Positions 2,469 to 38,108 of a stretch of DNA of 42,602 nucleotides are shown in pieces (position 1 is the first letter of the stretch; each line of letters opens with the position of its first letter). This DNA comes from a virus. The notes beneath the pieces were generated by a model that saw only the letters and a list, made by a program, of their open reading frames with translations, was not told where the DNA came from and did not search any database. The stretch lies in the IMG/VR virus record IMGVR_UViG_3300037467_001116. One strand, written 5' to 3'. A program made the position numbers and the translations under genes.

Positions 2469-4456
2469 TCGACAATCGCGAGCTCCTGTCCTTCCTCCAG
2501 CGCGAGGAAGAAAACTCATTCGACGGGACACTGCTCCAGGAAGTCGAGACCGCGCTCAAGGCTTATAACGGCGAGCCCTATGGCGACGAAGAGGATGGCC
2601 GCTCTCAAGTAGTGGCCCGCGATGTAGCCGAAACCACGGATTACATGCTCACGTCGGTCCTGGACGCGTTTGTGTCGTCGGGGCGGGTGGTCGAGTTCGA
2701 GCCTACGGACGAGGCGCAAGAGGATGTGTGCGATGACGCCACGGAGGCGATGCACTACCTCTATCGGAGGAAGTCGGGCTATCGCCTGATCCATGACTGG
2801 GCGAAGGGCGGGCTGCTCGAAAAGATCGCGATTGTTAAGTCCTGCGTCGAGCGCAAGCGGAAGCGCGTCGAGCGCGACGTTCCGACGATTTTCCTGCCTG
2901 ACAACGAGGACGAGCTAAGGGCCGCCGGCATAATCGCGGCTGACCAAATCGACGAAGAGACGCACCGCATTGCGACCATCGAGGAGTCGCCGGCGACGTT
3001 CCCGGATTATTTCGTGCCGCAGGAAGAGTTCCGCGTATCGCGCGACGCGCGGGATTTGGATAGCTCGGTCTATAACGCGCACATCTCCGAGAAGCTGGTT
3101 TCCGAACTGGTCGAGATGGGTTTCGACTATGACGAAGTCGCAAACCTTCAGGACGGCGGCAACAATGCCACGGTAGGCTTCGCCCGCGATGATGGGCGCG
3201 AGACGCTTAGGGACGACCGCACTGGCGCGCTCCGCAAGGTGTGGCTGCTGGAGGAATATGTCCTCTATGACCTGAACGGCGACGGCATTGCCGAGCGGCT
3301 GTGCATCCATCGGGTCGGAAACCACATCCTGTCGATTGAAGAGGTGGATTACCAGCCCTTCGAATTCTGGTGCCCGTTCCCGATGCAGGGCCGGCTCATT
3401 GGTCAATCGCTGGCCGACAAGACCGTGGACATCCAACGCGTGAACACCGCGCTTGAGCGGAACGGGCTGGACTCGCTCTACATGTCCGTTGCTCCTGGGA
3501 CGCTGGTTCACGAGGATTCAATCGGCGACAACACGATTGAGGATTTGCTGACCGTTCGCCCGCGCCGGATCGTTCGGTGGAAGGGCAGCGTCGAGCCCCA
3601 GCCCGAGACGGTCCAGGATATTAGCCAGATCGCGTTTCAGGCGATCGAGTTCAAGACGCGCCAGCGTGAGAGCCGCACGGGCATTACCCGCCTCAACAAG
3701 GGCGTGGACGAAGACACGCTCAACGACACGGCCAAGGGACAGGCGCAGCTCATGGCGCGCGGGCAGCAGATGGAGCGCTACATCATCCGCAACTTCGCGG
3801 AAGGCGTGGCCCGGCTGTTCATGAAGAAGGTTGGCCTGATGCGCCGCTACGGCCAGCCCTTCACCATTCGCGTCGATGGGGAATACAAGCAAGTCGATCC
3901 CTCGCAATGGCCCGAGGACATGGAGATCAATGTCAAGGTTGGTCTCGGCTCGGGCACGAAGGACGAGCGCCTGGCGTATCGGAACATGGTCGCCCAATCG
4001 CATTCGCTGCTGATGGGCGCTCAGGCCCCGATCTGCACGTGGGAGAACGTCTATAACAACCTGACCGCCGCCGCGAAGGATGCCGGACTGGCGCCGAACG
4101 ACCTCTACACCCACCCTGACGATGCGCCGCAGCAGGAACCGCAGCCCGATCCGGCGGTGATGAAGCTGCAAGCCGAGCTTCAGTTGAAGCAGCAGCAGTT
4201 GATGCAGGCCCAGCAGGACAGCCAGGCGAAGATCGCGTTGATGGCGCAGAAGGGCGCGAGTGACGCCCAAATCGCTCAGGCGCGAATGGAGAGCGAGACG
4301 CAACTGGCCCTCCGCCAGCAGAACATCGACGCATTCCTTCAGGCGCACGAAATGGCGATTGAGGCCCACAGGCACGCTGCCGAACAGCGGCGCGCCGAGG
4401 CGGAGAGCAAAGCGAAAGTCACATCCCTCCGCAAGGGTGGGAAGCTGAACAAATGA
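2465..4456 (+). CDS. Portal protein
   Basis: 663 aa directly after terL with a TTGA overlap. Size and Q-rich coiled-coil C-terminus are typical of portals. Confidence 0.75.
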   Translation: MIDNRELLSFLQREEENSFDGTLLQEVETALKAYNGEPYGDEEDGRSQVVARDVAETTDYMLTSVLDAFVSSGRVVEFEPTDEAQEDVCDDATEAMHYLYRRKSGYRLIHDWAKGGLLEKIAIVKSCVERKRKRVERDVPTIFLPDNEDELRAAGIIAADQIDEETHRIATIEESPATFPDYFVPQEEFRVSRDARDLDSSVYNAHISEKLVSELVEMGFDYDEVANLQDGGNNATVGFARDDGRETLRDDRTGALRKVWLLEEYVLYDLNGDGIAERLCIHRVGNHILSIEEVDYQPFEFWCPFPMQGRLIGQSLADKTVDIQRVNTALERNGLDSLYMSVAPGTLVHEDSIGDNTIEDLLTVRPRRIVRWKGSVEPQPETVQDISQIAFQAIEFKTRQRESRTGITRLNKGVDEDTLNDTAKGQAQLMARGQQMERYIIRNFAEGVARLFMKKVGLMRRYGQPFTIRVDGEYKQVDPSQWPEDMEINVKVGLGSGTKDERLAYRNMVAQSHSLLMGAQAPICTWENVYNNLTAAAKDAGLAPNDLYTHPDDAPQQEPQPDPAVMKLQAELQLKQQQLMQAQQDSQAKIALMAQKGASDAQIAQARMESETQLALRQQNIDAFLQAHEMAIEAHRHAAEQRRAEAESKAKVTSLRKGGKLNK

Positions 4457-25318: not shown

Positions 25319-25492
25319 TTGCCGCCTCCCGCTTTGGGGCGGAACACGCCATTTCGGGAAGGTTAGACAGCTCCGAGCGTTGATTTCCTTGACTAAGCGC
25401 AGTCCCTCTGCCCCTGCCATGTCCGCCGAATAGCGACAGTTTTCCGCCAATTCTCGACGGGTTAGACAATCGCGCTACCCCAAGGTTAGCCA
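25309..25492 (+). promoter_or_regulatory. Candidate attP region with four direct GGTTAG(A/C)CA repeats (arm-type-site candidates)
   Basis: GGTTAGACA at 25309, 25361 and 25460, and GGTTAGCCA at 25484, all in one orientation. They sit in and around the noncoding gap between the int stop and the GIY-YIG start. Confidence 0.45.
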
Positions 25493-26556
25493 ATGTTCGT
25501 CTCCCGTTCCCACTCGATAACCTCGACCAGAGCGCTTTCTGCGAGCGCCTTCTGATTAGCGCCGGCCACGTAAACGGCGACCTCGCGATCCCCTGACCAT
25601 TGGCCGAGCGCCTTGAGTCCCTGCTGCGATACGTGGCGGTCAGCCGCGCGACGGGCCAGCGCCTTCCGCAGCCCGTGCGCCGTGCATTGCGGCAGCCCGG
25701 CGTCGTCGCACCATTCCCTGACCTTGTTCCCGAACCCGCCGACCGTGAACGGCTTGCCGTATTCGGTCACGAGCAGGGTCGTGATGCCCACAGTCGGCAT
25801 GGCGTCTATCGCCGCCTGGAGCTGCGGCGCAACGGGCAAATCCTGATCCTTGCCGGTCTTCTTCGCCGTGAAGGCAATGCGCCCGTTCTTCGGTGGTGCG
25901 GCCCTGTGAGCATCGCTCCGGCGCTTGCCCGTCCACAGGATCAGCTCCATCGCCAGCCTAGCCTTGGTGCCGAGCGGCCAGTAGGCGCGATATTGGGCGA
26001 TCTCTTCCTCAGTCCATTCGTGGAAGCCTACCTTCTTGTGCTTGACGGTCTCGGATTTCTCCACGGGGTTGTCGCTTCGCCATTCCTGGCGCACCGCGAA
26101 GTCGAAGAATATCTCCAACTGCTCGCGGAGCCTCAGCGCCGCATGGGATCCACCGATCCAGCGGCGGCCGACTTTCTTGCGGGTCAGTTTGGCGGCAATG
26201 ATGGCGTCAATGTCCTTCGGACGGAACGCGGCCACGGGATCATCGCCAAACTCTTCGCGGAAGCCCTCTAGCACTCGCCTGCGGGTCGCCTTCCATTCAT
26301 CGCTCCCTTGGCGGAAGCCGACGCTGGCGTAGAACCGCGGCATCAGGTCGCCAACGGTTCCGGGCTTGGCGCGGGGCGTGATGGGGATTGAGCCGAGCGC
26401 CTTCAGCGTGGCCTCTTCGTAAGCCGCCCGATAGTCCTTGCTCGTCGGGTTCGGCAGGTAGCAAGAGAAGCCGTTGCGCCTGAAGCGGAACCGCTCCTTA
26501 TGGTGGCGATCCACGAACGCTGAGACGTAAGGGTCGAGCTTGCGCTTCCTAGCCAT
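25486..26556 (-). CDS. int: Tyrosine recombinase / phage integrase
   Basis: 356 aa. C-terminal catalytic region has R (GKRRSD), HGLRK, and GQW/Y motifs (AHGLRKALARRAAD...LGQWSGDREVAVY). Confidence 0.85.
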   Translation of the reverse strand: MARKRKLDPYVSAFVDRHHKERFRFRRNGFSCYLPNPTSKDYRAAYEEATLKALGSIPITPRAKPGTVGDLMPRFYASVGFRQGSDEWKATRRRVLEGFREEFGDDPVAAFRPKDIDAIIAAKLTRKKVGRRWIGGSHAALRLREQLEIFFDFAVRQEWRSDNPVEKSETVKHKKVGFHEWTEEEIAQYRAYWPLGTKARLAMELILWTGKRRSDAHRAAPPKNGRIAFTAKKTGKDQDLPVAPQLQAAIDAMPTVGITTLLVTEYGKPFTVGGFGNKVREWCDDAGLPQCTAHGLRKALARRAADRHVSQQGLKALGQWSGDREVAVYVAGANQKALAESALVEVIEWERETNIG

Positions 26557-26734: not shown

Positions 26735-27012
26735 CGACGCAGTTGCCCGCAGGTTTCGCATTTGGGCGGCTTGTCTAGGCGGTGATCGCGGCGCCATGCT
26801 TCGATAAGCGCTTGGAGGGCGTAGCCCGTGCTGCCGCTCAGGATGCGGTCGCGGTAGAGGTAGCGATATTGCGGCTTTATCAGCTTTAAGTCGCCAATGA
26901 GTTCCATTGTGACGCGGCGACCATAGGCACGCAGGCAGCGCGAGGGATTGAAGCGGGAACCGGCGAGACGCGCAGCGCCTCGATCCCGAAGGCTATAGAA
27001 CAGCGCTTTCAT
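26731..27012 (-). CDS. Hypothetical protein
   Basis: Internal ATG (MKALFYSL) with ATGA overlap to the HNH gene stop, 93 aa. Confidence 0.45.
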   Translation of the reverse strand: MKALFYSLRDRGAARLAGSRFNPSRCLRAYGRRVTMELIGDLKLIKPQYRYLYRDRILSGSTGYALQALIEAWRRDHRLDKPPKCETCGQLRR

Positions 27013-27521
27013 AGTGATGCCCACCTGCGACCCGACCTGATTTGTCGGACGGTAGCCTCACCTAGGCCCATCTCGCGGGCGAGGCCCCTGTGACTCTTCG
27101 AGGAGGCGCGGATAGCTAGAACTTCAGCTGCCGTCAGTTTGGCACGTGGGTGCCTTTCGCCAGCCTGGTGGGTACCGTGGGCCACCTTGTGAGATGCGTT
27201 CTCGCGAGGGCTGACCCACTTTAGGTTCTCAACGCGATTATCAGTCTTGTCACCATTCAGGTGCGCCACATCGCGGTGCAGGGCGTTCTTTTTGTCGGCA
27301 AGGAACGCGAGCGCCACCAAGCGATGAACCTTGTGGCGCTTTGCCGATCCGTTGTTGGTCAGCAAAACGCAGCGATAGCCGTATCTATCAACCGAGCCGC
27401 GCATGTAACCATCGCCCCGCCTAGCGTGCAGGGAATAGACGCGCCCCAGGCTTGAGACTTGATACAGTCCCTCGTGGCCCGCGACAGGCCGCCACTCCTC
27501 GCGAAGCACGCGCCCAATCAC
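27009..27521 (-). CDS. HNH homing endonuclease (NUMOD4-like N-terminus, C-terminal HTH)
   Basis: EEWRPVAGHEGLYQVSSLGRVYS (NUMOD4-like), HRLVALAF...HLNGDKTDNRVENLKW (HNH), and C-terminal GLAREMGLGEATVRQI. GTGA-coupled GTG start. Confidence 0.7.
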   Translation of the reverse strand: MIGRVLREEWRPVAGHEGLYQVSSLGRVYSLHARRGDGYMRGSVDRYGYRCVLLTNNGSAKRHKVHRLVALAFLADKKNALHRDVAHLNGDKTDNRVENLKWVSPRENASHKVAHGTHQAGERHPRAKLTAAEVLAIRASSKSHRGLAREMGLGEATVRQIRSGRRWASL

Positions 27522-27616
27522 CGCCACCGCCACATTGGAGGCATACCGCAGCCGATGCACACGATGCTGACCAGCAGGCAGCCAATCGCGCCGGCGAGAT
27601 GATCGAGGAGTTTCAT
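27518..27616 (-). CDS. 32-aa membrane peptide (micro-ORF)
   Basis: MKLLDHLAGAIGCLLVSIVCIGCGMPPMWRWR. ATGA overlap upstream and GTGA overlap downstream. Confidence 0.3.
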   Translation of the reverse strand: MKLLDHLAGAIGCLLVSIVCIGCGMPPMWRWR

Positions 27617-27771
27617 CGGGATAGTGCCCGTAAGGCTGCTGCGCGGCACTTCCGGCCTTCCGCAAGAGCCCGCAGCTGGGCCAAACGCATCATCGCTAAG
27701 AGGATAGCCAGCGGCACAAACACTAGCGCCATGCCGCCTGCGATCATCAGCCATTCGTCAAACGTCGGCAC
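27613..27771 (-). CDS. 52-aa membrane peptide (micro-ORF)
   Basis: GTG 7 nt after GGAG. A TM helix (MIAGGMALVFVPLAILLAMM) followed by a basic tail. Confidence 0.35.
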   Translation of the reverse strand: MPTFDEWLMIAGGMALVFVPLAILLAMMRLAQLRALAEGRKCRAAALRALSR

Positions 27772-29764: not shown

Positions 29765-30579
29765 TCTGCGCCGCCGATCAGAGCAAGGGCCGAGCCGACC
29801 TTGCTACTTGCTTCGTCCACGAACTCTATGTCGGTGACGTTGCCAAACTCGTTGATGTTATCGATCAAGCGCTTCGCTGACCGCGCGGCCTCCACTAACT
29901 CTGCATAGTGGCAAGCTTCGAGGGCGAGCGCTCTGTTGTGGGCCACGAGAGCGTTTTCATTCTCGATTTGAAGATCGAGAGCACACGATAACTGGCGGCG
30001 CTCATCTACAAGGTTAGAAATGTTGCGCTCGACGATGACGCGAAGTTCATCAGCAGAGACGCACATGGCCTCGCCTTCGGTGTAATCATCGCCCGGAAGT
30101 TCCGCGACATCACGCACGATGCCAGAGACAACCCGCTCCACCATTGCGCCGCTATCTGGCTTAATGGGGTCAGGTGCCTGACCTTCAGGTGCGACCGGCC
30201 ATGCTTCTTTGCCAACCTCGGACTCAAGCCACTCGATTTCCTCGGCGCTACGCTCAGGTGCCGCCTCTTGTGGTGATAGGGCGGCTTTGACTTTGCCGAG
30301 TGCGAAGTCGGCTCGGCGCACCAAGGCGCTGACGGCATCCGTGTCTGGCAAATCCTCCTGCTCGACCAGCAGTTGAAGCACTGTCGCAGTTTCGACTAAC
30401 GCCTCCCGCAGCGCCGAGCTAACCCCGCCTTCAGGTGAGGTGGATTGCCGCAGTCGTTGGATTTCGTCCAACAGTTCACCGAACTCTTCAGGGCAATACT
30501 CGTCGATTGCGCTCGTCATGAAACGCCGCTCGAACTTGGCGCGCATTTCTTCGATCTGCTCGTCAGTTATGTGTGTCAT
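29761..30579 (-). CDS. Hypothetical early protein (coiled-coil)
   Basis: Start taken at the internal ATG (MTHITDEQIEEM), 272 aa. Confidence 0.55.
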   Translation of the reverse strand: MTHITDEQIEEMRAKFERRFMTSAIDEYCPEEFGELLDEIQRLRQSTSPEGGVSSALREALVETATVLQLLVEQEDLPDTDAVSALVRRADFALGKVKAALSPQEAAPERSAEEIEWLESEVGKEAWPVAPEGQAPDPIKPDSGAMVERVVSGIVRDVAELPGDDYTEGEAMCVSADELRVIVERNISNLVDERRQLSCALDLQIENENALVAHNRALALEACHYAELVEAARSAKRLIDNINEFGNVTDIEFVDEASSKVGSALALIGGAE

Positions 30580-31174
30580 GGGGTTGCCTTGGGTGGGTGA
30601 TTGGGGGTGTTGGGCGATGCTCGCGATAAAATTGCGCGCTTCGGATTGCCCTGCATGTGGCGCACTGCCGGGCGCCATTGACCGCATAAACGTAGACGTT
30701 GTCCGGTGTCAGAGCGTGACCGTGGACGCAATGAGAGCGGCGGCGATCCTTCGTAGATCGTCCCTTCCGAACCATATCATCTGCGTTGTCTTGCTTGCTT
30801 CCGACAAACAGGTGTGCCGGGTTAACGCATTCGGGGTTATCGCAGCTGTGGCATGCCAGCATCCCAGGCGGGAAGTCTGCACCGTGGTGCATTTCCCATG
30901 AGATGTGCGTGGCCGCGCGCACCTTCCCATTGTGCCCGATCCTGCCATATCCATCTACGGTTTTAGAACCCAGCCAAGTCCAGCAATCGTCCCGACCGCG
31001 GCGTTCGACCTTTTCCCAAAACCTTTCTTCGAGCGACCTAGGCTTAGGTCGAGTCTGACCAAGTTGAGAGATGTTGAAGCAGTGCCTTGAGCAATACCGC
31101 CCCCGCCCCTCTCGTATACGGTAGGGCCAAGTCTGGAAGTCTCGGCCGCACTGATGGCAAGTGGCCGGTATCAT
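30563..31174 (-). CDS. HNH endonuclease (zinc-finger type)
   Basis: CWTWLGSKTVDGYGRI...ACHSCDNPECVNPAHLFVGSKQDNADDM is a typical HNH homing-endonuclease core. N-terminal CxxC...CxxxC. Confidence 0.7.
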   Translation of the reverse strand: MIPATCHQCGRDFQTWPYRIREGRGRYCSRHCFNISQLGQTRPKPRSLEERFWEKVERRGRDDCWTWLGSKTVDGYGRIGHNGKVRAATHISWEMHHGADFPPGMLACHSCDNPECVNPAHLFVGSKQDNADDMVRKGRSTKDRRRSHCVHGHALTPDNVYVYAVNGARQCATCRAIRSAQFYREHRPTPPITHPRQPHDTHN

Positions 31175-33100: not shown

Positions 33101-33315
33101 GAATTGCTGGCGGACGGCTTATTAGGCGCGTCCGCCTCCCTGGTGTTCGGTTGCGAAAGCGATGGAAGCCCGGAGGGGCTAGACACCGAAGAGTGGCTAG
33201 ACGGCGAAGCCGCGACAGCGCGGCGCGAAGCGTTCGCCCAAATGAGGTCGCAGAAGTCAGCTACATCACTGCCCCTCACACTCTCCCCCAAATCATATTG
33301 GAAAGGGTTACGCAT
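33097..33315 (-). CDS. Hypothetical protein
   Basis: Internal ATG (MRNPFQYDL), 72 aa, S/P-rich tail. Confidence 0.4.
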   Translation of the reverse strand: MRNPFQYDLGESVRGSDVADFCDLIWANASRRAVAASPSSHSSVSSPSGLPSLSQPNTREADAPNKPSASNS

Positions 33316-34045
33316 TATGCTGGCCCCTTCGGGCGTCTGGCTTCGCCACCGCGTGCTCACCCTTGCGGGCCAAGCCTACTCCGTGTCTTGGCGCTCCGCA
33401 TTTCGCCCGCTGACGCGCGGCGTGTTCCAGCTTGGCAATGGCGAGGATCGACGGGCGCACTCCCGGCGCCGCATCATCGAACGCCAGCTCGCGGCGATAA
33501 CGGTTTCCGCCCGCCAAGCGCGGCAGTAGCGCGCGAGGCACGGCTTCCCAATTCGACGGGTCGGTGTTCTGCCTGTTGCCGTCGAGACACTTCAGCGCGT
33601 GGCTGGCGGGAACGGGGCCGTTCGCTTGCTCCCAAACCCAACGATGCTTCAACACGTAGCGCCGCTCATATCCGGTGTGCGGGTTCGCTTCCGGCACACT
33701 GATCTCAACGTAGCCGTCTTTCGACACCCGTTCGTGCCAGAGGTAATTCGTGTTGTGCGGCTCTTGCCCGCGCCTGAATTGCATGCGCCGAGCATTAGGG
33801 TGCCTGCCGCCGCGACCCTCGGCGCACGGCTTGCCCTTGTTGTGCGGAGCCGCACCCTTCTCGAAGAAGCCTGTTCGTCCGGTCTTCCAGCCCTTGCGCT
33901 TGCGTAGCGCGTGCAGAGCTCCAGGCGTAACTTCGCGCCCAAACTTCGCGTTGAAGGCGCGGGCATAGTCGCTAATCGCCATCAGGCGATTGGCCTCCAG
34001 CCACGCCATTTCTGCGGCGCTGTATGGGATGCTGCGGCCCTTCAC
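33308..34045 (-). CDS. HNH homing endonuclease
   Basis: GTGA-coupled GTG start. YVLKHRWVWEQANGPVPASHALKCLDGNRQNTDPSNWEAV is an HNH_3-type core. Confidence 0.65.
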   Translation of the reverse strand: MKGRSIPYSAAEMAWLEANRLMAISDYARAFNAKFGREVTPGALHALRKRKGWKTGRTGFFEKGAAPHNKGKPCAEGRGGRHPNARRMQFRRGQEPHNTNYLWHERVSKDGYVEISVPEANPHTGYERRYVLKHRWVWEQANGPVPASHALKCLDGNRQNTDPSNWEAVPRALLPRLAGGNRYRRELAFDDAAPGVRPSILAIAKLEHAARQRAKCGAPRHGVGLARKGEHAVAKPDARRGQHNA

Positions 34046-34395
34046 GCTGCGGCCTTCGCTTTGCAGTGGGCAGATTGGCAGCGTGCCGCTTCTTCCGGCA
34101 TGACTTTCGCCTCGCACTGTTCGCACCAGCTTGCGGTCGGAACGGCTACCAGCGCCGGCGGCTGACGATCCTCCAGCATGGTCAGATGTTGGCCAACGCG
34201 GGCGCCGTGATTGGCGAGAAGGGTAACGGCCTTTAGCTGCAAATCGGCGTTGCGGACGATCTGACCCGACACACCAACAACGGCCTTGGCGCGCTTGACT
34301 TCCTGCTCGATCTGCTCTGCCGTCAAATCCTCGTCGGACAGCCGCTCAAGTTGCGCGAACAGGTGATTGTTCAAGTCGGTGAGTTTGTTTTTCAT
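34042..34395 (-). CDS. Hypothetical protein
   Basis: 117-aa ORF with a helical N-terminus and a C-terminal CxxC...C...C. Confidence 0.55.
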   Translation of the reverse strand: MKNKLTDLNNHLFAQLERLSDEDLTAEQIEQEVKRAKAVVGVSGQIVRNADLQLKAVTLLANHGARVGQHLTMLEDRQPPALVAVPTASWCEQCEAKVMPEEAARCQSAHCKAKAAA

Positions 34396-34880: not shown

Positions 34881-35297
34881 TCATTGGGCGTGAGCCTTGG
34901 CGAGGGCGCTCTTGGCCTCAGCGAAGAGGTTGTCGAGATTGTCGCCCTTGCCGAGCGTATCGAACGTGCAGTGTTCGACAAACTTGGCCACGAAGGCGTA
35001 AAGTTCAGGAGCAGCCGCGATTAAGCGGGCGTTGGCTTGGCCTTCCGGATCTGGCGCTTTGTAAGCTTCACCGCGCTTTGCCTCACCTTTGAATGAGACC
35101 TCGCAAATCGGCCCGCCAACCTGAAAGCCCTCTTCATCGGTTTGCACGGCCGTGACGATCCACGCGCCGGAGTTGGCGCGATAGTAGCCCTCATGCTCGG
35201 CCAGGGTCTCACCCTTCAGCGCCGCGAACTCGACGGCACTGTCCATGCGGTTGAGCGACCACGGGCCAGCCGTCGGTTGTTTGGAGAGGCTGGTCAT
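34881..35297 (-). CDS. Hypothetical early protein
   Basis: ATGA-coupled internal ATG (MTSLSKQPT), 138 aa. Contains ARLIAAAPELY, a motif I recall as recurrent in phage early proteins (from memory, unchecked). Confidence 0.5.
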   Translation of the reverse strand: MTSLSKQPTAGPWSLNRMDSAVEFAALKGETLAEHEGYYRANSGAWIVTAVQTDEEGFQVGGPICEVSFKGEAKRGEAYKAPDPEGQANARLIAAAPELYAFVAKFVEHCTFDTLGKGDNLDNLFAEAKSALAKAHAQ

Positions 35298-35506
35298 GCC
35301 ACGAGACTCCGCAGGAACAGCCAAAGCCGTTCCCAAATGGTCAGCCGGAAACCGGCCTGATGAAGAGCATTGAGTTCCCAGTCCTCGAGCTCAGCCGCAG
35401 CGATGATCTCGGGCGGGGCCGGGTGGACGATGCGATAGCCCGGCGCGTCGGTCAGGGCATGAAGATGCTCGACCGGGATCGGGCGGACGAAAGGTTGGCG
35501 GGTCAT
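35294..35506 (-). CDS. Hypothetical protein
   Basis: 70-aa ORF with ATGA overlaps. Confidence 0.5.
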   Translation of the reverse strand: MTRQPFVRPIPVEHLHALTDAPGYRIVHPAPPEIIAAAELEDWELNALHQAGFRLTIWERLWLFLRSLVA

Positions 35507-36312
35507 GCCGCGGCCTTCTCAACCTGAAGCGCGGGGAGCGCTCCGCATTCACGCAGCTTGTCGGTGATATCCTTGACCGGCGTGCAGCCATGCAGGCGGT
35601 ATTTGCCGTCAGTGCCCAACGGAATGCAGGCAATGTCCGCATTCGTGTGCTCGATCAGAAGGATGCGGTAGCCTTCGCGCCATTCTTTAAGGCACCAAGG
35701 CAGATCGGCCACATGAATGCCGGCCGAACACATTTCGTTCGGGTCGGTGTCGGCATTCTTGACCGAAACACGCTTGCCGATCTTGTATTTCAGACCGCCG
35801 TTGATGTGGCCTTCGCCGCGCTCATTCACGACCTTGAAGGCATGAACGGTGGGCATGAACTTGAGAGACGCCAAATGCGTTGTCCGCTCGGGAATGAAGC
35901 CTTTGGCACCCGCGAGGTAGGCACGCGCGAGGTCGGCACCCGCGAGGTCGGCACCCGCTAGGTTGGCACCCGCTAGGTTGGCACGCGCTAGGTTGGCACC
36001 CGCGAGGTCGGCACGCGCGAGGTAGGCACGCGCTAGGTTGGCACCCGCGAGGTCGGCACGCGCGAGGTAGGCACGCGCTAGGTAGGCACCCGCGAGGTCG
36101 GCACGCGCGAGGTAGGCACGCGCGAGGTCGGCACCCGCTAGGTTGGCACCCGCGAGGTAGGCACCCGCGAGGTCGGCACGCGCTTTAAGAGCAGCCTTTA
36201 CGGCCAGCCCTAGTTTCACGCTTGGCAGAGCATCCGGAGAACAAGTGATCTCGGCGGTGAACATAACTTCGCCGGACCAGCGATTCTTGATCGGATATTG
36301 CTCGTTCGCCAC
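35503..36312 (-). CDS. Pentapeptide-repeat protein with a distinct C-terminal domain; first gene of the leftward early operon
   Basis: About 18 consecutive A-[D/N/Y]-L-A-[G/R] pentapeptides. GTG start 8 nt after AGGAG. About 115-aa non-repeat C-terminal domain. Confidence 0.8.
   Translation of the reverse strand: MANEQYPIKNRWSGEVMFTAEITCSPDALPSVKLGLAVKAALKARADLAGAYLAGANLAGADLARAYLARADLAGAYLARAYLARADLAGANLARAYLARADLAGANLARANLAGANLAGADLAGADLARAYLAGAKGFIPERTTHLASLKFMPTVHAFKVVNERGEGHINGGLKYKIGKRVSVKNADTDPNEMCSAGIHVADLPWCLKEWREGYRILLIEHTNADIACIPLGTDGKYRLHGCTPVKDITDKLRECGALPALQVEKAAA
35911..36180. repeat. 18 tandem copies of a 15-bp unit CGC[G/T]AGGT[A/C/T]GGCAC[C/G] (coding, in frame)
   Basis: Read directly from the sequence. 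12 of 15 positions are invariant across all 18 units. Confidence 0.95.
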
Positions 36313-36349
36313 TTGATCTGCTCCTGTCGGCTGTGTGCCGTGGAGCCGT

Positions 36350-36444
36350 GTTCGCACATTACGGACAGCGTGTAAAGCGAAATCCGCATATAACGGACAA
36401 CTAATTTAGCACCCCGTAGGGGTGAGTGTCCGTAAATCGTCTGA
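36350..36444. promoter_or_regulatory. Leftward early promoter/operator region: three copies of a 17-bp operator-like motif
   Basis: GTTCGCACATTACGGAC (36350..36366), ATCCGCATATAACGGAC (36382..36398) and an inverted copy GTCCGTAAATCGTCTGA (36428..36444). A CACCCCgtaGGGGTG hairpin lies at 36410..36424. Confidence 0.5.
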
Positions 36445-36446
36445 TT

Positions 36447-36761
36447 CTAGTTGCTGGTGCCGGTCTTGCGGAAGGATTCGAGGACGCGGAGCGCGGTCGC
36501 TTTGTCGCGCTCGTCGATCGCCGCCCAAATGTCGAGAATGTCGGTGTCGATATCGTTAGGATCGCTATCGAGGATGTGGCCGGCGTTTGTCCTCAGAGCG
36601 GGTGCTAGCCGACGCAGCCACTTATCGGACAGCCTTAGCCGTCCACGCTCCAGGTCGGAGATGACTGACTTAGACGTGCCCACCACATCGGCCAGCTCGT
36701 CCTGCGTCATTTCGCGGAACTCGCGCCATTCCTTCAGGTAGTGAGGCAGTTTCTCCGGCAC
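36447..36761 (-). CDS. XRE/CI-type HTH repressor (start uncertain: GTG 36761 or ATG 36857)
   Basis: LKEWREFREMTQDELADVVGTSKSVISDLERGRLRLS is a Cro/C1-type HTH. Divergent from a Cro-like gene. Confidence 0.65.
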   Translation of the reverse strand: MPEKLPHYLKEWREFREMTQDELADVVGTSKSVISDLERGRLRLSDKWLRRLAPALRTNAGHILDSDPNDIDTDILDIWAAIDERDKATALRVLESFRKTGTSN

Positions 36762-36847
36762 GTCCGTAATATACGTCAGCTCGTGCGGAGGGTCGTCTAG
36801 CGTTTCACGGATTTTTCCTATTGCATTCGTGTCCGTGATATGCGAAC
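36762..36847. promoter_or_regulatory. Divergent switch region with two more operator-like copies
   Basis: GTCCGTAATATACGTCA (36762..36778) and GTCCGTGATATGCGAAC (36831..36847). The latter is the reverse complement of GTTCGCATATCACGGAC and matches the 36350 site at 15 of 17 positions. Confidence 0.45.
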
Positions 36848-36855
36848 ACGGCGGC

Positions 36856-37077
36856 ATGGCGAAACCCACCATCCGGCAGCTCAACGAGGCGTTTGGCATT
36901 AGTCGCTCCTATGCGTGCGACATCCTGAACACCAAAACGCAGCCTCGTGGGCTTATCGTCCAGATATATCGGAAGTTTGGGTGGAAGGCTCCGCTGATCG
37001 CCCACCTCAACGAAGAGCAAATCGCCTTCATTGAGGAGGCCGAAAAGGTCGCGCCGACTGGGCGGCAGGCTGCGTAA
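36856..37077 (+). CDS. Cro-like small HTH protein
   Basis: Internal ATG (MAKPTIRQLNEAFGISRSYACDILN), 73 aa. Divergent from the repressor gene. Confidence 0.5.
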   Translation: MAKPTIRQLNEAFGISRSYACDILNTKTQPRGLIVQIYRKFGWKAPLIAHLNEEQIAFIEEAEKVAPTGRQAA

Positions 37078-37079
37078 TG

Positions 37080-37316
37080 TCAGCCGACAGCAGCCTCTTC
37101 GCTATCGGGTGTCGGGAAGCTGATAACTTCCGCGCCGCCTTGCCAAGCCCTGACAGCGGCATTGGCGCGACGGAGGGCTTTGAGGAACGTGTGGGGCGGA
37201 ATGACCCGCTCGAAGCGATATTGCCCGATGGTCTGGACCACGTGAAAATTTCCGCTGCGGTATTCGATTTCCGGCGGCTCTTCACAGAAGAACACGGCAT
37301 CCAGCTTCTCGGGCAT
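37080..37316 (-). CDS. Hypothetical protein (opposite strand within the switch region)
   Basis: 78-aa ORF with a strong third-position G+C bias. The overlapping + strand track ORF 37077..37484 looks like a shadow. Confidence 0.45.
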   Translation of the reverse strand: MPEKLDAVFFCEEPPEIEYRSGNFHVVQTIGQYRFERVIPPHTFLKALRRANAAVRAWQGGAEVISFPTPDSEEAAVG

Positions 37317-37486
37317 CCACAGGCCCCTTCCCCATACGCAACGACCGGCAAAAGATTTGGTGCCAGAGCGAAGGTGGACAGTTCATTAACGCACTGTAAC
37401 GGGACGTTTTTTGCGCCAGCTCCCGGCGCAGCGGGGCGAGTTACCCCTGACTCGCTCCGCATTCCTTTGACGGCGGAGACATAGCC

Positions 37487-37684
37487 GTGGCGGGGGGATT
37501 CATCATCGCCGCCGTTTTCGCCTTTCTCGGCTACCGCGTCCTCACGCGCATCATCCTGCCCGAACTCTCGGACAAGCTCCGGAAACAAGCGGGCGACTAT
37601 TGGCCCAACGGCCATCGGACGGCGGTTCCTGACGATTTCCATGGCGCCACAACTAACGGAACGGAGGCGCAACATCATGCGTGA
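37487..37684 (+). CDS. Possible small membrane protein
   Basis: GTG start. N-terminal TM (GGFIIAAVFAFLGYRVL). Good codon bias. Confidence 0.35.
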   Translation: MAGGFIIAAVFAFLGYRVLTRIILPELSDKLRKQAGDYWPNGHRTAVPDDFHGATTNGTEAQHHA

Positions 37685-38108
37685 CGCATCCAATATCATG
37701 CGCGACCGACAACGCGCGATCCGCCGCGAACTCGACCGCCGGGGCATCAGCCTCAAGGCTGTCAGTTTCGACAGCGGCATCCCGTATTCGACGCTCTGCT
37801 CGTACTTCCCCGGCAACGAAAACGGAAGCGTCGAGCGCAAGCCGTGCGAGATGCCAGTAGGTGCCGTTTACAGCCTGTGCGGCGCCATTCCCGACGACTT
37901 GCTCAACCTTCTCTGCCCCGAGGGATTCGCGGTTGTCCGCGTTCCTTCTGGCATTGATTACGACGAGTTCTCCGCCGGGTGCCGGGAGTTCATCGAGGCA
38001 AAGGATCGGGCGCACCACCCCGAGAGTGAGGCGGGTCGCGACATTGGCCCGAACGAGGCCAACGATCTTGGCGTGAAAGTCATTCAGCTTCGGGGGCGGG
38101 TGGCATGA
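37677..38108 (+). CDS. HTH regulatory protein (CII-like position)
   Basis: Internal ATG (MRDASNIMRDRQRAIRRELDRRGISLKAVSFDSGIPYSTLCSYF). HTH-like segment. Position is right of the cro-like gene. Confidence 0.4.
   Translation: MRDASNIMRDRQRAIRRELDRRGISLKAVSFDSGIPYSTLCSYFPGNENGSVERKPCEMPVGAVYSLCGAIPDDLLNLLCPEGFAVVRVPSGIDYDEFSAGCREFIEAKDRAHHPESEAGRDIGPNEANDLGVKVIQLRGRVA

Follow-up and report, generated by a model that had tools for sequence, protein, structure and literature searches.

The IMG/VR virus record IMGVR_UViG_3300037467_001116, a stretch of 42,602 nucleotides that was analysed at its full length and is designated here as the window, contains on its minus strand, at 35503-36312, a gene for a protein of 269 residues whose C-terminal domain is homologous to the conserved core of the phage protein RIIB. 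RIIB and RIIA have been known since the work of Benzer; through them, T-even phages and others evade RexAB, the abortive-infection system of lambda lysogens. The protein of the window is best explained as a cytosolic protein made of three parts: an N-terminal cap, a β-helix of variable length built from pentapeptide repeats, and the RIIB-core-like domain. It is a RIIB-family protein in a new architecture and in a new regulatory setting, within a populous and uncharacterised family. An original prediction had presented the gene as the first product of a repressor-controlled leftward operon and the protein as a DNA mimic; its protein of 269 residues is borne out by the open reading frame (ORF) and the translation.

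The C-terminal domain and the conserved core of RIIB

The part of the protein that follows the last pentapeptide repeat comprises 134 residues (136-269), about 100 of which (155-255) form a conserved domain. The original prediction was right in placing a domain there, estimated its size at about 115 residues instead of 134, and regarded it as uncharacterised, a view overtaken by the homology with the RIIB core, on which five tests agree. Two PHROG families annotated as RIIB lysis inhibitor, phrog_11221 and phrog_609, match residues 155-253 with E-values of 4e-7 and 1e-5, respectively. By tblastn against 50,697 phage records, the domain matched 23 records. The hits fall in rIIB or rIIB-like genes, from T4-like phages of Proteus and phiCbK-like phages of Caulobacter, except for three, annotated as 'hypothetical protein' (two) and 'host ATPase affecting protein' (one); the phiCbK gene matched in this way adjoins rIIA. 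Aligned by hhalign with single RIIB sequences, the family profile matches residues 209-307 of T4 RIIB (92% probability, E = 6e-7), as well as the RIIB proteins of Pm5461 (94%) and phiCbK (97%, E = 2e-11). The RIIB proteins of T4 and phiCbK have T4 residues 154-309 in common, a hallmark of RIIB, and it is to the 209-307 part of this region that the domain of the window aligns. The AlphaFold2 model of the domain (predicted local distance difference test, pLDDT, 90; predicted template modelling score, pTM, 0.83) was compared by Foldseek with BFVD, and the top matches are mostly RIIB-named proteins, with template modelling (TM) scores of 0.64-0.72 and E-values of 2e-9 to 1e-5, from Acinetobacter, Aeromonas, Escherichia RB43, Vibrio, Salmonella, Pseudomonas, Caulobacter, Delftia and N4-like phages; viral proteins named after DUF7666 rank after the RIIB proteins in this list. 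Reciprocally, the RIIB proteins of T4, phiCbK and Pm5461 match the window by tblastn only at the 35503-36312 gene.

The domain is recognized by the signature A[FWY]KxV ... CxxG[IL][HNS] ... D[IV]xx[IV]P ... KxR, of which A-x-K-x-V, the Gly residue of CxxG, D[IV]xx[IV]P and K-x-R are invariant in the alignment of the superfamily. With respect to the RIIB proteins of T4, phiCbK-like and N4-like phages, the likeness thus concerns the C-terminal 100 residues or so, which combine the RIIB core fold with the motifs A[FWY]KxV, CxxG[IL]H, D[IV]xxIP and KxR. In contrast, the N-terminal two-thirds of RIIB are replaced here by the cap and the pentapeptide β-helix; the corresponding region of T4 RIIB includes a weak helix-turn-helix (HTH)-like match, and RIIB may consist of an HTH domain followed by the core domain, as suggested by sub-threshold Pfam scores at the N-terminus of the T4 protein (residues 7-50, rIIB being located at 2469-3404 of locus L004; HTH_7, 23.6 versus 23.8 bits; HTH_28, 23.1 versus 25 bits). 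No paper linking RIIB with pentapeptide repeats was found in the literature, nor any mentioning DUF7666 or DUF5758, the two domains of unknown function whose Pfam models are the only ones to touch the C-terminal domain.

Towards experimental structures, a profile search of the PDB sequences with the C-terminal domain found nothing, and a Foldseek search of the PDB with the domain model (ma0c657c068da) gave 0 matches at E ≤ 0.001, the root-mean-square deviations being mostly of 5-15 Å. The best matches of this search, the ADP-ribosyltransferase-fold proteins Arr (2hw2, E = 0.11, TM 0.37), the TreTu toxin and PARP13, with several fungal NADases also listed at TM scores of only 0.12-0.17, would be in keeping with a very divergent ADP-ribosyltransferase-like fold modifying a host or defence protein, which would be compatible with the best explanation of the protein. 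The invariant Lys, Asp and Lys-x-Arg residues and a near-invariant Cys are present, but neither an H-Y-E nor an R-S-E triad can be assigned and none of the matches is significant. Such a fold is considered scarcely probable, and the weak signal, which comes from a predicted model, is kept only as a lead.

The pentapeptide rod and the question of DNA mimicry

The gene starts with a GTG codon at 36312, preceded by AGGAG with a spacer of 8 nt. This start is common to the allele of a sibling phage, found on contig L023 (IMGVR_UViG_3300038393_001228), which is identical from 31 nt upstream onward. A longer ORF of 284 residues starting from 36357 was rejected, as it has no ribosome-binding site and would cross an operator-like motif. 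The cap numbers 45 residues by translation, as had been claimed, and is modelled by AlphaFold2 as two strands (2-10 and 16-24) and a helix (30-43) with a pLDDT of 93-95; it is predicted to close the start of the β-helix. Together with the C-terminal domain it is common to the homologues, and in the PHROG search it matches phrog_31265 and phrog_31567.

Residues 46-135 consist of exactly 18 consecutive perfect units of the type A-[D/N/Y]-L-A-[G/R], namely ADLAG (five), AYLAR (four), ANLAG (three), AYLAG, ADLAR and ANLAR (two each), in agreement with the number of about 18 expected from the original prediction, and Pfam PF00805 matches with 75.2 bits for a cut-off of 20.2 (E = 2.7e-21). At the DNA level, Tandem Repeats Finder delineates a 15-bp array at 35905-36183 (18.6 copies, 87% match), which also displays a super-period of 45 bp, or three units (91% match). 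Two spurious ORFs, 35590-35961 (+) and 35826-35954 (-), whose products are made of REVGT/PTSRV repeats, are other frames of the same array. The full protein, modelled by AlphaFold2 with an alignment of 71 sequences, reaches a mean pLDDT of 87 and shows one strand residue every five residues over 51-137; by Foldseek, the model matches pentapeptide-repeat structures of the PDB, among them Np275/276, HetL, MfpA, Qnr and AlbG. The right-handed β-helix that had been anticipated is thus predicted by AlphaFold2, as a quadrilateral helix of the pentapeptide type.

The length of this rod differs widely among relatives. The sibling allele of L023 contains 25 units instead of 18, with a cap 100% identical and a C-terminal domain 99% identical to those of the window, the next relatives contain 3-7 units, and the number ranges from 0 to 36 across 135 members of the family. 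The length of the β-helix thus changes quickly in evolution. The near-perfect array of about 270 bp is hard to resolve by short-read assembly, so that the count of 18 can be trusted no further than the assembly itself, and some of the counts in the family may be artefacts of assembly. Contigs break inside the repeat array in about 19 of 76 related IMG/VR contigs, and because the array breaks short-read assemblies the repeat counts of metagenomic contigs need caution; L025, L030, L031, L049, L054, L055, L058, L067, L072 and L088 are among the contigs ending in the pentapeptide DNA repeat. The same set of about 19 of 76 loci, in which the contig starts with the gene reading inward, had suggested a first-injected gene located at the genome end, like Ocr of T7. 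This was ruled out, since the breaks fall inside the 15-bp array (L067 starts in the middle of a repeat) and no T7-like RNA polymerase follows the gene.

According to the original prediction, the β-helix would imitate B-form DNA, either to bind gyrase or topoisomerase IV, as Qnr, MfpA and AlbG do, or to soak up defences in the manner of Ocr and ArdA. The protein of the window has the repeat type and the β-helix fold in common with Qnr, MfpA, AlbG and McbG, as seen with PF00805, AlphaFold2 and Foldseek, and an early-gene position would suit an anti-restriction role. MfpA, Qnr and AlbG indeed occur in the Foldseek list of PDB structures, although generic pentapeptide proteins, of cyanobacterial or synthetic origin, rank above them. 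MfpA and Qnr depend on an acidic surface resembling DNA and on dimerisation via a C-terminal helix located after the β-helix (PMC10886550). The window protein, in contrast, is basic, with a net charge of +6 and an isoelectric point of 8.96; its repeat region has a net charge of +1, with 7 Asp against 8 Arg at the outward-facing positions; and in the AlphaFold2 model the β-helix is followed by the part of 134 residues with its globular domain, an additional effector domain, and not by a C-terminal dimerisation helix. It is also devoid of Qnr-type loops. The NCBIfam models for Qnr and MfpA give 28.5 bits for a cut-off of 240 and 23 bits for a cut-off of 360, respectively, and those for QnrA, QnrB, QnrS and other subfamilies 21-33 bits for cut-offs of 425-500, while Foldseek shows the fold to be unrelated to that of Ocr or ArdA. 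In addition, the helix is of unstable length, even between alleles that are 99% identical: with seven additional units, the orientation of the C-terminal domain with respect to the cap would shift by about 270 degrees, and no face-specific surface is preserved because the duplication period of three units is out of register with the coil of four units. With its unstable length and scrambled faces, the rod looks like a spacer or a generic scaffold. The claim of DNA mimicry is not upheld by the charge, the family-model scores and the helix length, and is considered very improbable.

A closer parallel for such a rod is offered by PipB2 of Salmonella and NleL of Escherichia coli, in which a pentapeptide β-helix serves as a scaffold beside another functional region. 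PipB/PipB2 and NleL are among the matches of the repeat region, but these are effectors that bacteria secrete and that act in eukaryotic cells, and their partner domains are unrelated. Two proteins, P0148 and P0149, combine the same cap and rod (73% identity over residues 2-138 and 55% over residues 4-136, respectively) with another C-terminal domain, unannotated and about 130 residues long, which suggests that different heads can be exchanged on the rod.

With the domain alone as query, eight close relatives of the same architecture were retrieved. The profile search with the domain retrieved 1041 proteins, most of those listed also containing pentapeptide repeats and a few consisting of the domain alone. 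More than 1000 metagenomic proteins display the repeat-plus-domain architecture, and the members of the family are named only 'hypothetical' or 'pentapeptide repeat-containing protein' in their sources. A full-length phmmer search against 1.8 billion representatives, which returned 101,824 matches, was swamped by generic pentapeptide proteins and served only for picking proteins of the same architecture. Among sequenced phages, no close relative was detected by megablast or tblastn, whether the region or the full protein served as query; in these searches the low-complexity filter removes the repeats.

The immunity module and the proposed early operon

The gene lies next to a cI-like repressor gene, in a switch region that comprises operator-like motifs and putative promoters on both sides of the repressor (Table 1). 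The 14-nt motif GTCCGTNATRTRCG occurs in four copies in the whole window, for 0.15 expected, and only in two regulatory gaps, two copies being oriented toward the pentapeptide gene and two toward cro. This distribution agrees with the claim that the gene lies directly downstream of an operator cluster. A 31-nt element that includes the GTCCGTAATGTGCG site at 36353-36366 is common to both promoter regions. A consensus scan for sigma-70 promoters over 35200-37700 found none, and the promoter elements were proposed by visual inspection, guided by the cro side and by L023, in which a TTGACA aligns with the TTTACA of the leftward promoter; we infer the assignment of the latter from these resemblances. 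The cI-like gene probably starts at a GTG at 36761, adjoining an operator-like motif. The divergent cro-like product (36856-37077) has no family match in the Pfam and PHROG searches, and only 7 nt separate the ATG of its gene, at 36856, from the preceding -10 element that is proposed (GCGAACAC), so that its mRNA may be leaderless.

Operator-like sites common to two promoters flanking a repressor gene correspond to a layout of the lambda PL type, and a control of the gene by the repressor appears plausible. The likeness with lambda N is one of position only, the gene being the first past a left operator/promoter-like region beside the repressor gene. In contrast to N, the protein of 269 residues shows neither similarity to N, nor an arginine-rich N-terminal motif, nor any sign of an antitermination function. 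The position itself, which had been pointed out in the original prediction, recurs in two relatives whose repressors are unrelated. In L023, the same gene is located behind an unrelated repressor/cro module, and the identity of both sequences sets in at a point exactly 31 nt 5' of the GTG, about where the proposed promoter would initiate its transcript, which makes it a clean mosaic junction at the presumed start of the transcript. Compared with 36300-36900 of the window, the region 2440-3500 of L023 contains a repressor-like gene of 178 residues, a cro-like gene of 69 residues and a perfect TTGACA upstream. In the second relative, the close homologue P0004 (locus L003), the gene follows a Peptidase_S24-type repressor gene, after a gene of 75 residues, and precedes YqaJ exonuclease and RecT genes situated 774 nt further downstream. 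Position and motifs thus speak for the first gene of a leftward early operon, as had been claimed, an assignment well supported by the sequence, with the repressor control as its plausible complement.

An alternative reading of the same neighbourhood assumes a prophage-expressed exclusion or defence gene, co-transcribed with the repressor from a position equivalent to that of rexAB and protecting the lysogen. The gene directly follows the cI-like gene, both being on the same strand, and the short GC hairpin that follows the cI-like stop may be the terminator of the repressor transcript; because this hairpin has no U-tract, read-through from the repressor gene in lysogens would be possible. However, the operator-like motifs and the promoter-like element between cI and the gene define the position of N rather than that of rex, the stop codon overlaps the start of the next gene of the early operon, at E ≤ 0.01 neither the protein nor its domain nor any of four downstream genes matches a PADLOC family, and the domain is that of an anti-defence protein. 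This alternative is considered improbable.

As a member of the early operon, the gene is followed by a gene of 70 residues which is kept downstream in the sibling phage, and the overlap of its start with the stop of the repeat-protein gene suggests translational coupling. Further downstream are found small ORFs, HNH genes, an exonuclease gene and the integrase gene. Three HNH endonuclease genes (33308-34126, 30563-31174 and 27009-27665, all on the minus strand) occur in this one leftward operon. An early gene of 117 residues at 34042-34395 (-) matches phrog_2044, annotated as 'RNA polymerase beta subunit' (E = 2e-28, with a profile of 78 positions), an annotation that looks doubtful in view of the small size of the protein. 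The window as a whole corresponds to a temperate phage-like element of 42.6 kb with about 60% G+C, the terminase and structural genes of which are located on the plus strand at its left. The closest relative of the large terminase (981-2468, +) is that of Sphingopyxis phage VSN-002, with 66.7% amino acid identity, which hints at a sphingomonad or other alphaproteobacterial host; VSN-002 itself has no pentapeptide-RIIB gene.

Table 1. Coordinates of the pentapeptide-repeat/RIIB-core gene, of the parts of its product and of the surrounding features in the window.
Feature	Position	Strand	Remarks
Pentapeptide-repeat/RIIB-core gene	35503-36312	-	complete coding sequence, 269 residues and TGA stop
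Shine-Dalgarno AGGAG	36321-36325	-	8 nt 5' of GTG; same in sibling allele L023
N-terminal cap, residues 1-45	36178-36312	-	β-hairpin and helix in AlphaFold2 model
18 pentapeptide units, residues 46-135	35908-36177	-	about 4.5 predicted coils of quadrilateral β-helix; 15-bp tandem DNA repeat
Linker with short helix, residues 136-154	35851-35907	-	AlphaFold2 helix 146-152; family alignment
RIIB-core-like domain, residues 155-255	35548-35850	-	PHROG, tblastn, hhalign, Foldseek, reciprocal tblastn
C-terminal tail, residues 256-269	35506-35547	-	low model confidence
Next operon gene, 70 residues	35294-35506	-	start overlaps repeat-protein stop (ATGA 35506-35503)
Putative leftward early promoter	36348-36376	-	TTTACA 36376-36371, 16-nt spacer, CGAACA in GCGAACAC (36355-36348)
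Operator-like motif GTCCGTAATGTGCG	36353-36366	-	fills spacer of putative leftward promoter, overlaps -10
Operator-like motif GTCCGTTATATGCG	36385-36398	-	32 nt upstream of GTCCGTAATGTGCG copy
Short GC hairpin CACCCC-TAC-GGGGTG	36404-36418	-	just 3' of cI-like stop; without U-tract
cI-like HTH_3/HTH_31 repressor gene	36447-36899	-	longest ORF; Pfam and PHROG search
Operator-like motif GTCCGTAATATACG	36762-36775	+	cI/cro divergent region
Putative rightward promoter	TTGCAT 36821-36826, 16-nt spacer, CGAACA	+	same geometry and same GCGAACAC
Operator-like motif GTCCGTGATATGCG	36831-36844	+	inside putative rightward promoter
cro-like small gene	36856-37077	+	divergent from repressor gene; from sequence only
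Integrase gene	25486-26556

A RIIA-free RIIB core in temperate phages

Owing to the homology with RIIB and to the position in the early operon, an anti-defence function is proposed for the protein, as an early factor of counter-defence or host protection of the RIIB type, independent of RIIA and distinct from a DNA mimic; the chances of this proposal are judged to be about even. Transcription would start within the immunity module, from a promoter which, like its cro-side counterpart, is overlapped by the repeated motif. The gene would be silent in the lysogen and its product would be made within minutes of infection or induction. The C-terminal domain would be the effector, acting as RIIB does against RexAB-like abortive-infection systems, and the β-helix would be a rigid spacer or an interaction scaffold presenting it. 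Unlike the classical rII modules, the protein would work without a RIIA partner, and the infecting or induced phage would be protected from Rex-like abortive infection, for example that mounted by resident prophages. The homology with RIIB gives a more specific lead toward anti-defence than DNA mimicry does.

In T4, RIIB is an early gene, and an early expression of the gene of the window would follow from its position. RIIB is dispensable in the absence of Rex (PMC11879866), which fits an accessory gene occurring, as here, in variable early regions. Divergent RIIA/RIIB pairs counter lambda RexAB, and the knock-down of rIIA or rIIB in five phages reduced plating only on cells expressing RexAB (PMC11879866). 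RIIB of T6 is toxic to E. coli when expressed alone, and RIIB alone suffices to trigger a bacterial gasdermin system (PMC10312443).

The toxicity of T6 RIIB also lends itself to another explanation, that of an effector of general host takeover or toxicity, unrelated to defence, whose RIIB-like domain would perturb a membrane or energy function of the host while the rod recruits a host protein. Pentapeptide rods are protein-binding scaffolds in PipB2 and NleL, and members of the family sit among replication and recombination genes. A conserved partner gene was not found by all-against-all clustering of 4446 ORFs from 96 loci, in which no neighbour occurs in more than 11 loci, and the cluster of 11 loci seems to represent the gene itself read in another frame, as judged from the overlap of coordinates in L070. 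The knock-downs without effect in the absence of Rex point instead to a conditional role in counter-defence, and no host target is indicated by the analysis; host takeover is thus held to be rather unlikely.

Several points weigh against a RIIB-type counter-defence factor. Identity to RIIB is low (23-31%), and the protein contains only the core of about 100 residues, devoid of the N-terminal part of T4 RIIB; the segment of about 55 residues that precedes the core in the T4 and phiCbK proteins is missing, and a linker of 19 residues occupies its place. In Pfam, the domain is touched only by DUF7666 (PF24703) and DUF5758 (PF19062), below threshold: the window protein scores 12.3 bits with DUF5758 for a threshold of 26.9, and among 22 family members DUF7666 matches six (best E = 9.7e-5, below the threshold of 27 bits) and DUF5758 four. 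The classical anti-Rex activity needs rIIA and rIIB together, and no RIIA was found, either in the window with the RIIA proteins of T4 and phiCbK (best E = 1.7) or next to the family members in the 96 loci examined. The setting differs as well, this being a temperate phage of the lambdoid type with a repressor-type control. The neighbours of distant family members vary, and comprise ERF, an IstB-like loader, a clamp loader and HTH proteins. The possible read-through from the repressor gene belongs to the same side of the balance, and the family is known from sequences and models alone. Finally, the biochemical mechanism of RIIB against RexAB is still unknown (PMC10312443), and to say that the protein works like RIIB therefore names a phenotype and not a biochemistry.

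With respect to RIIB biology, the conserved core also exists as a small stand-alone module, fused to a β-helical rod and devoid of RIIA. Located in the immediate-early slot of temperate phages, this module represents a minimal form of RIIB for structural and genetic work. It offers a concrete handle on the old question of RIIB, even though the functional reading is inferential throughout and the phage has not been cultivated. More than 1000 proteins presently named 'pentapeptide repeat-containing' or 'hypothetical' are re-annotated by the finding of the RIIB core, which also warns that not every phage pentapeptide-repeat protein is a DNA mimic. Tentatively, and with some doubt, the RIIB core may be viewed as an autonomous effector free of RIIA, which a large, unrecognised family of phages mounts on a fast-changing rod and places as the first early gene in lambdoid phages. 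If this is true, the compact form could expose what RIIB binds or modifies, the action on this target might be enzymatic in view of the faint ADP-ribosyltransferase-like signal of the fold, and Rex-like abortive infection would be countered far beyond the T-even phages.

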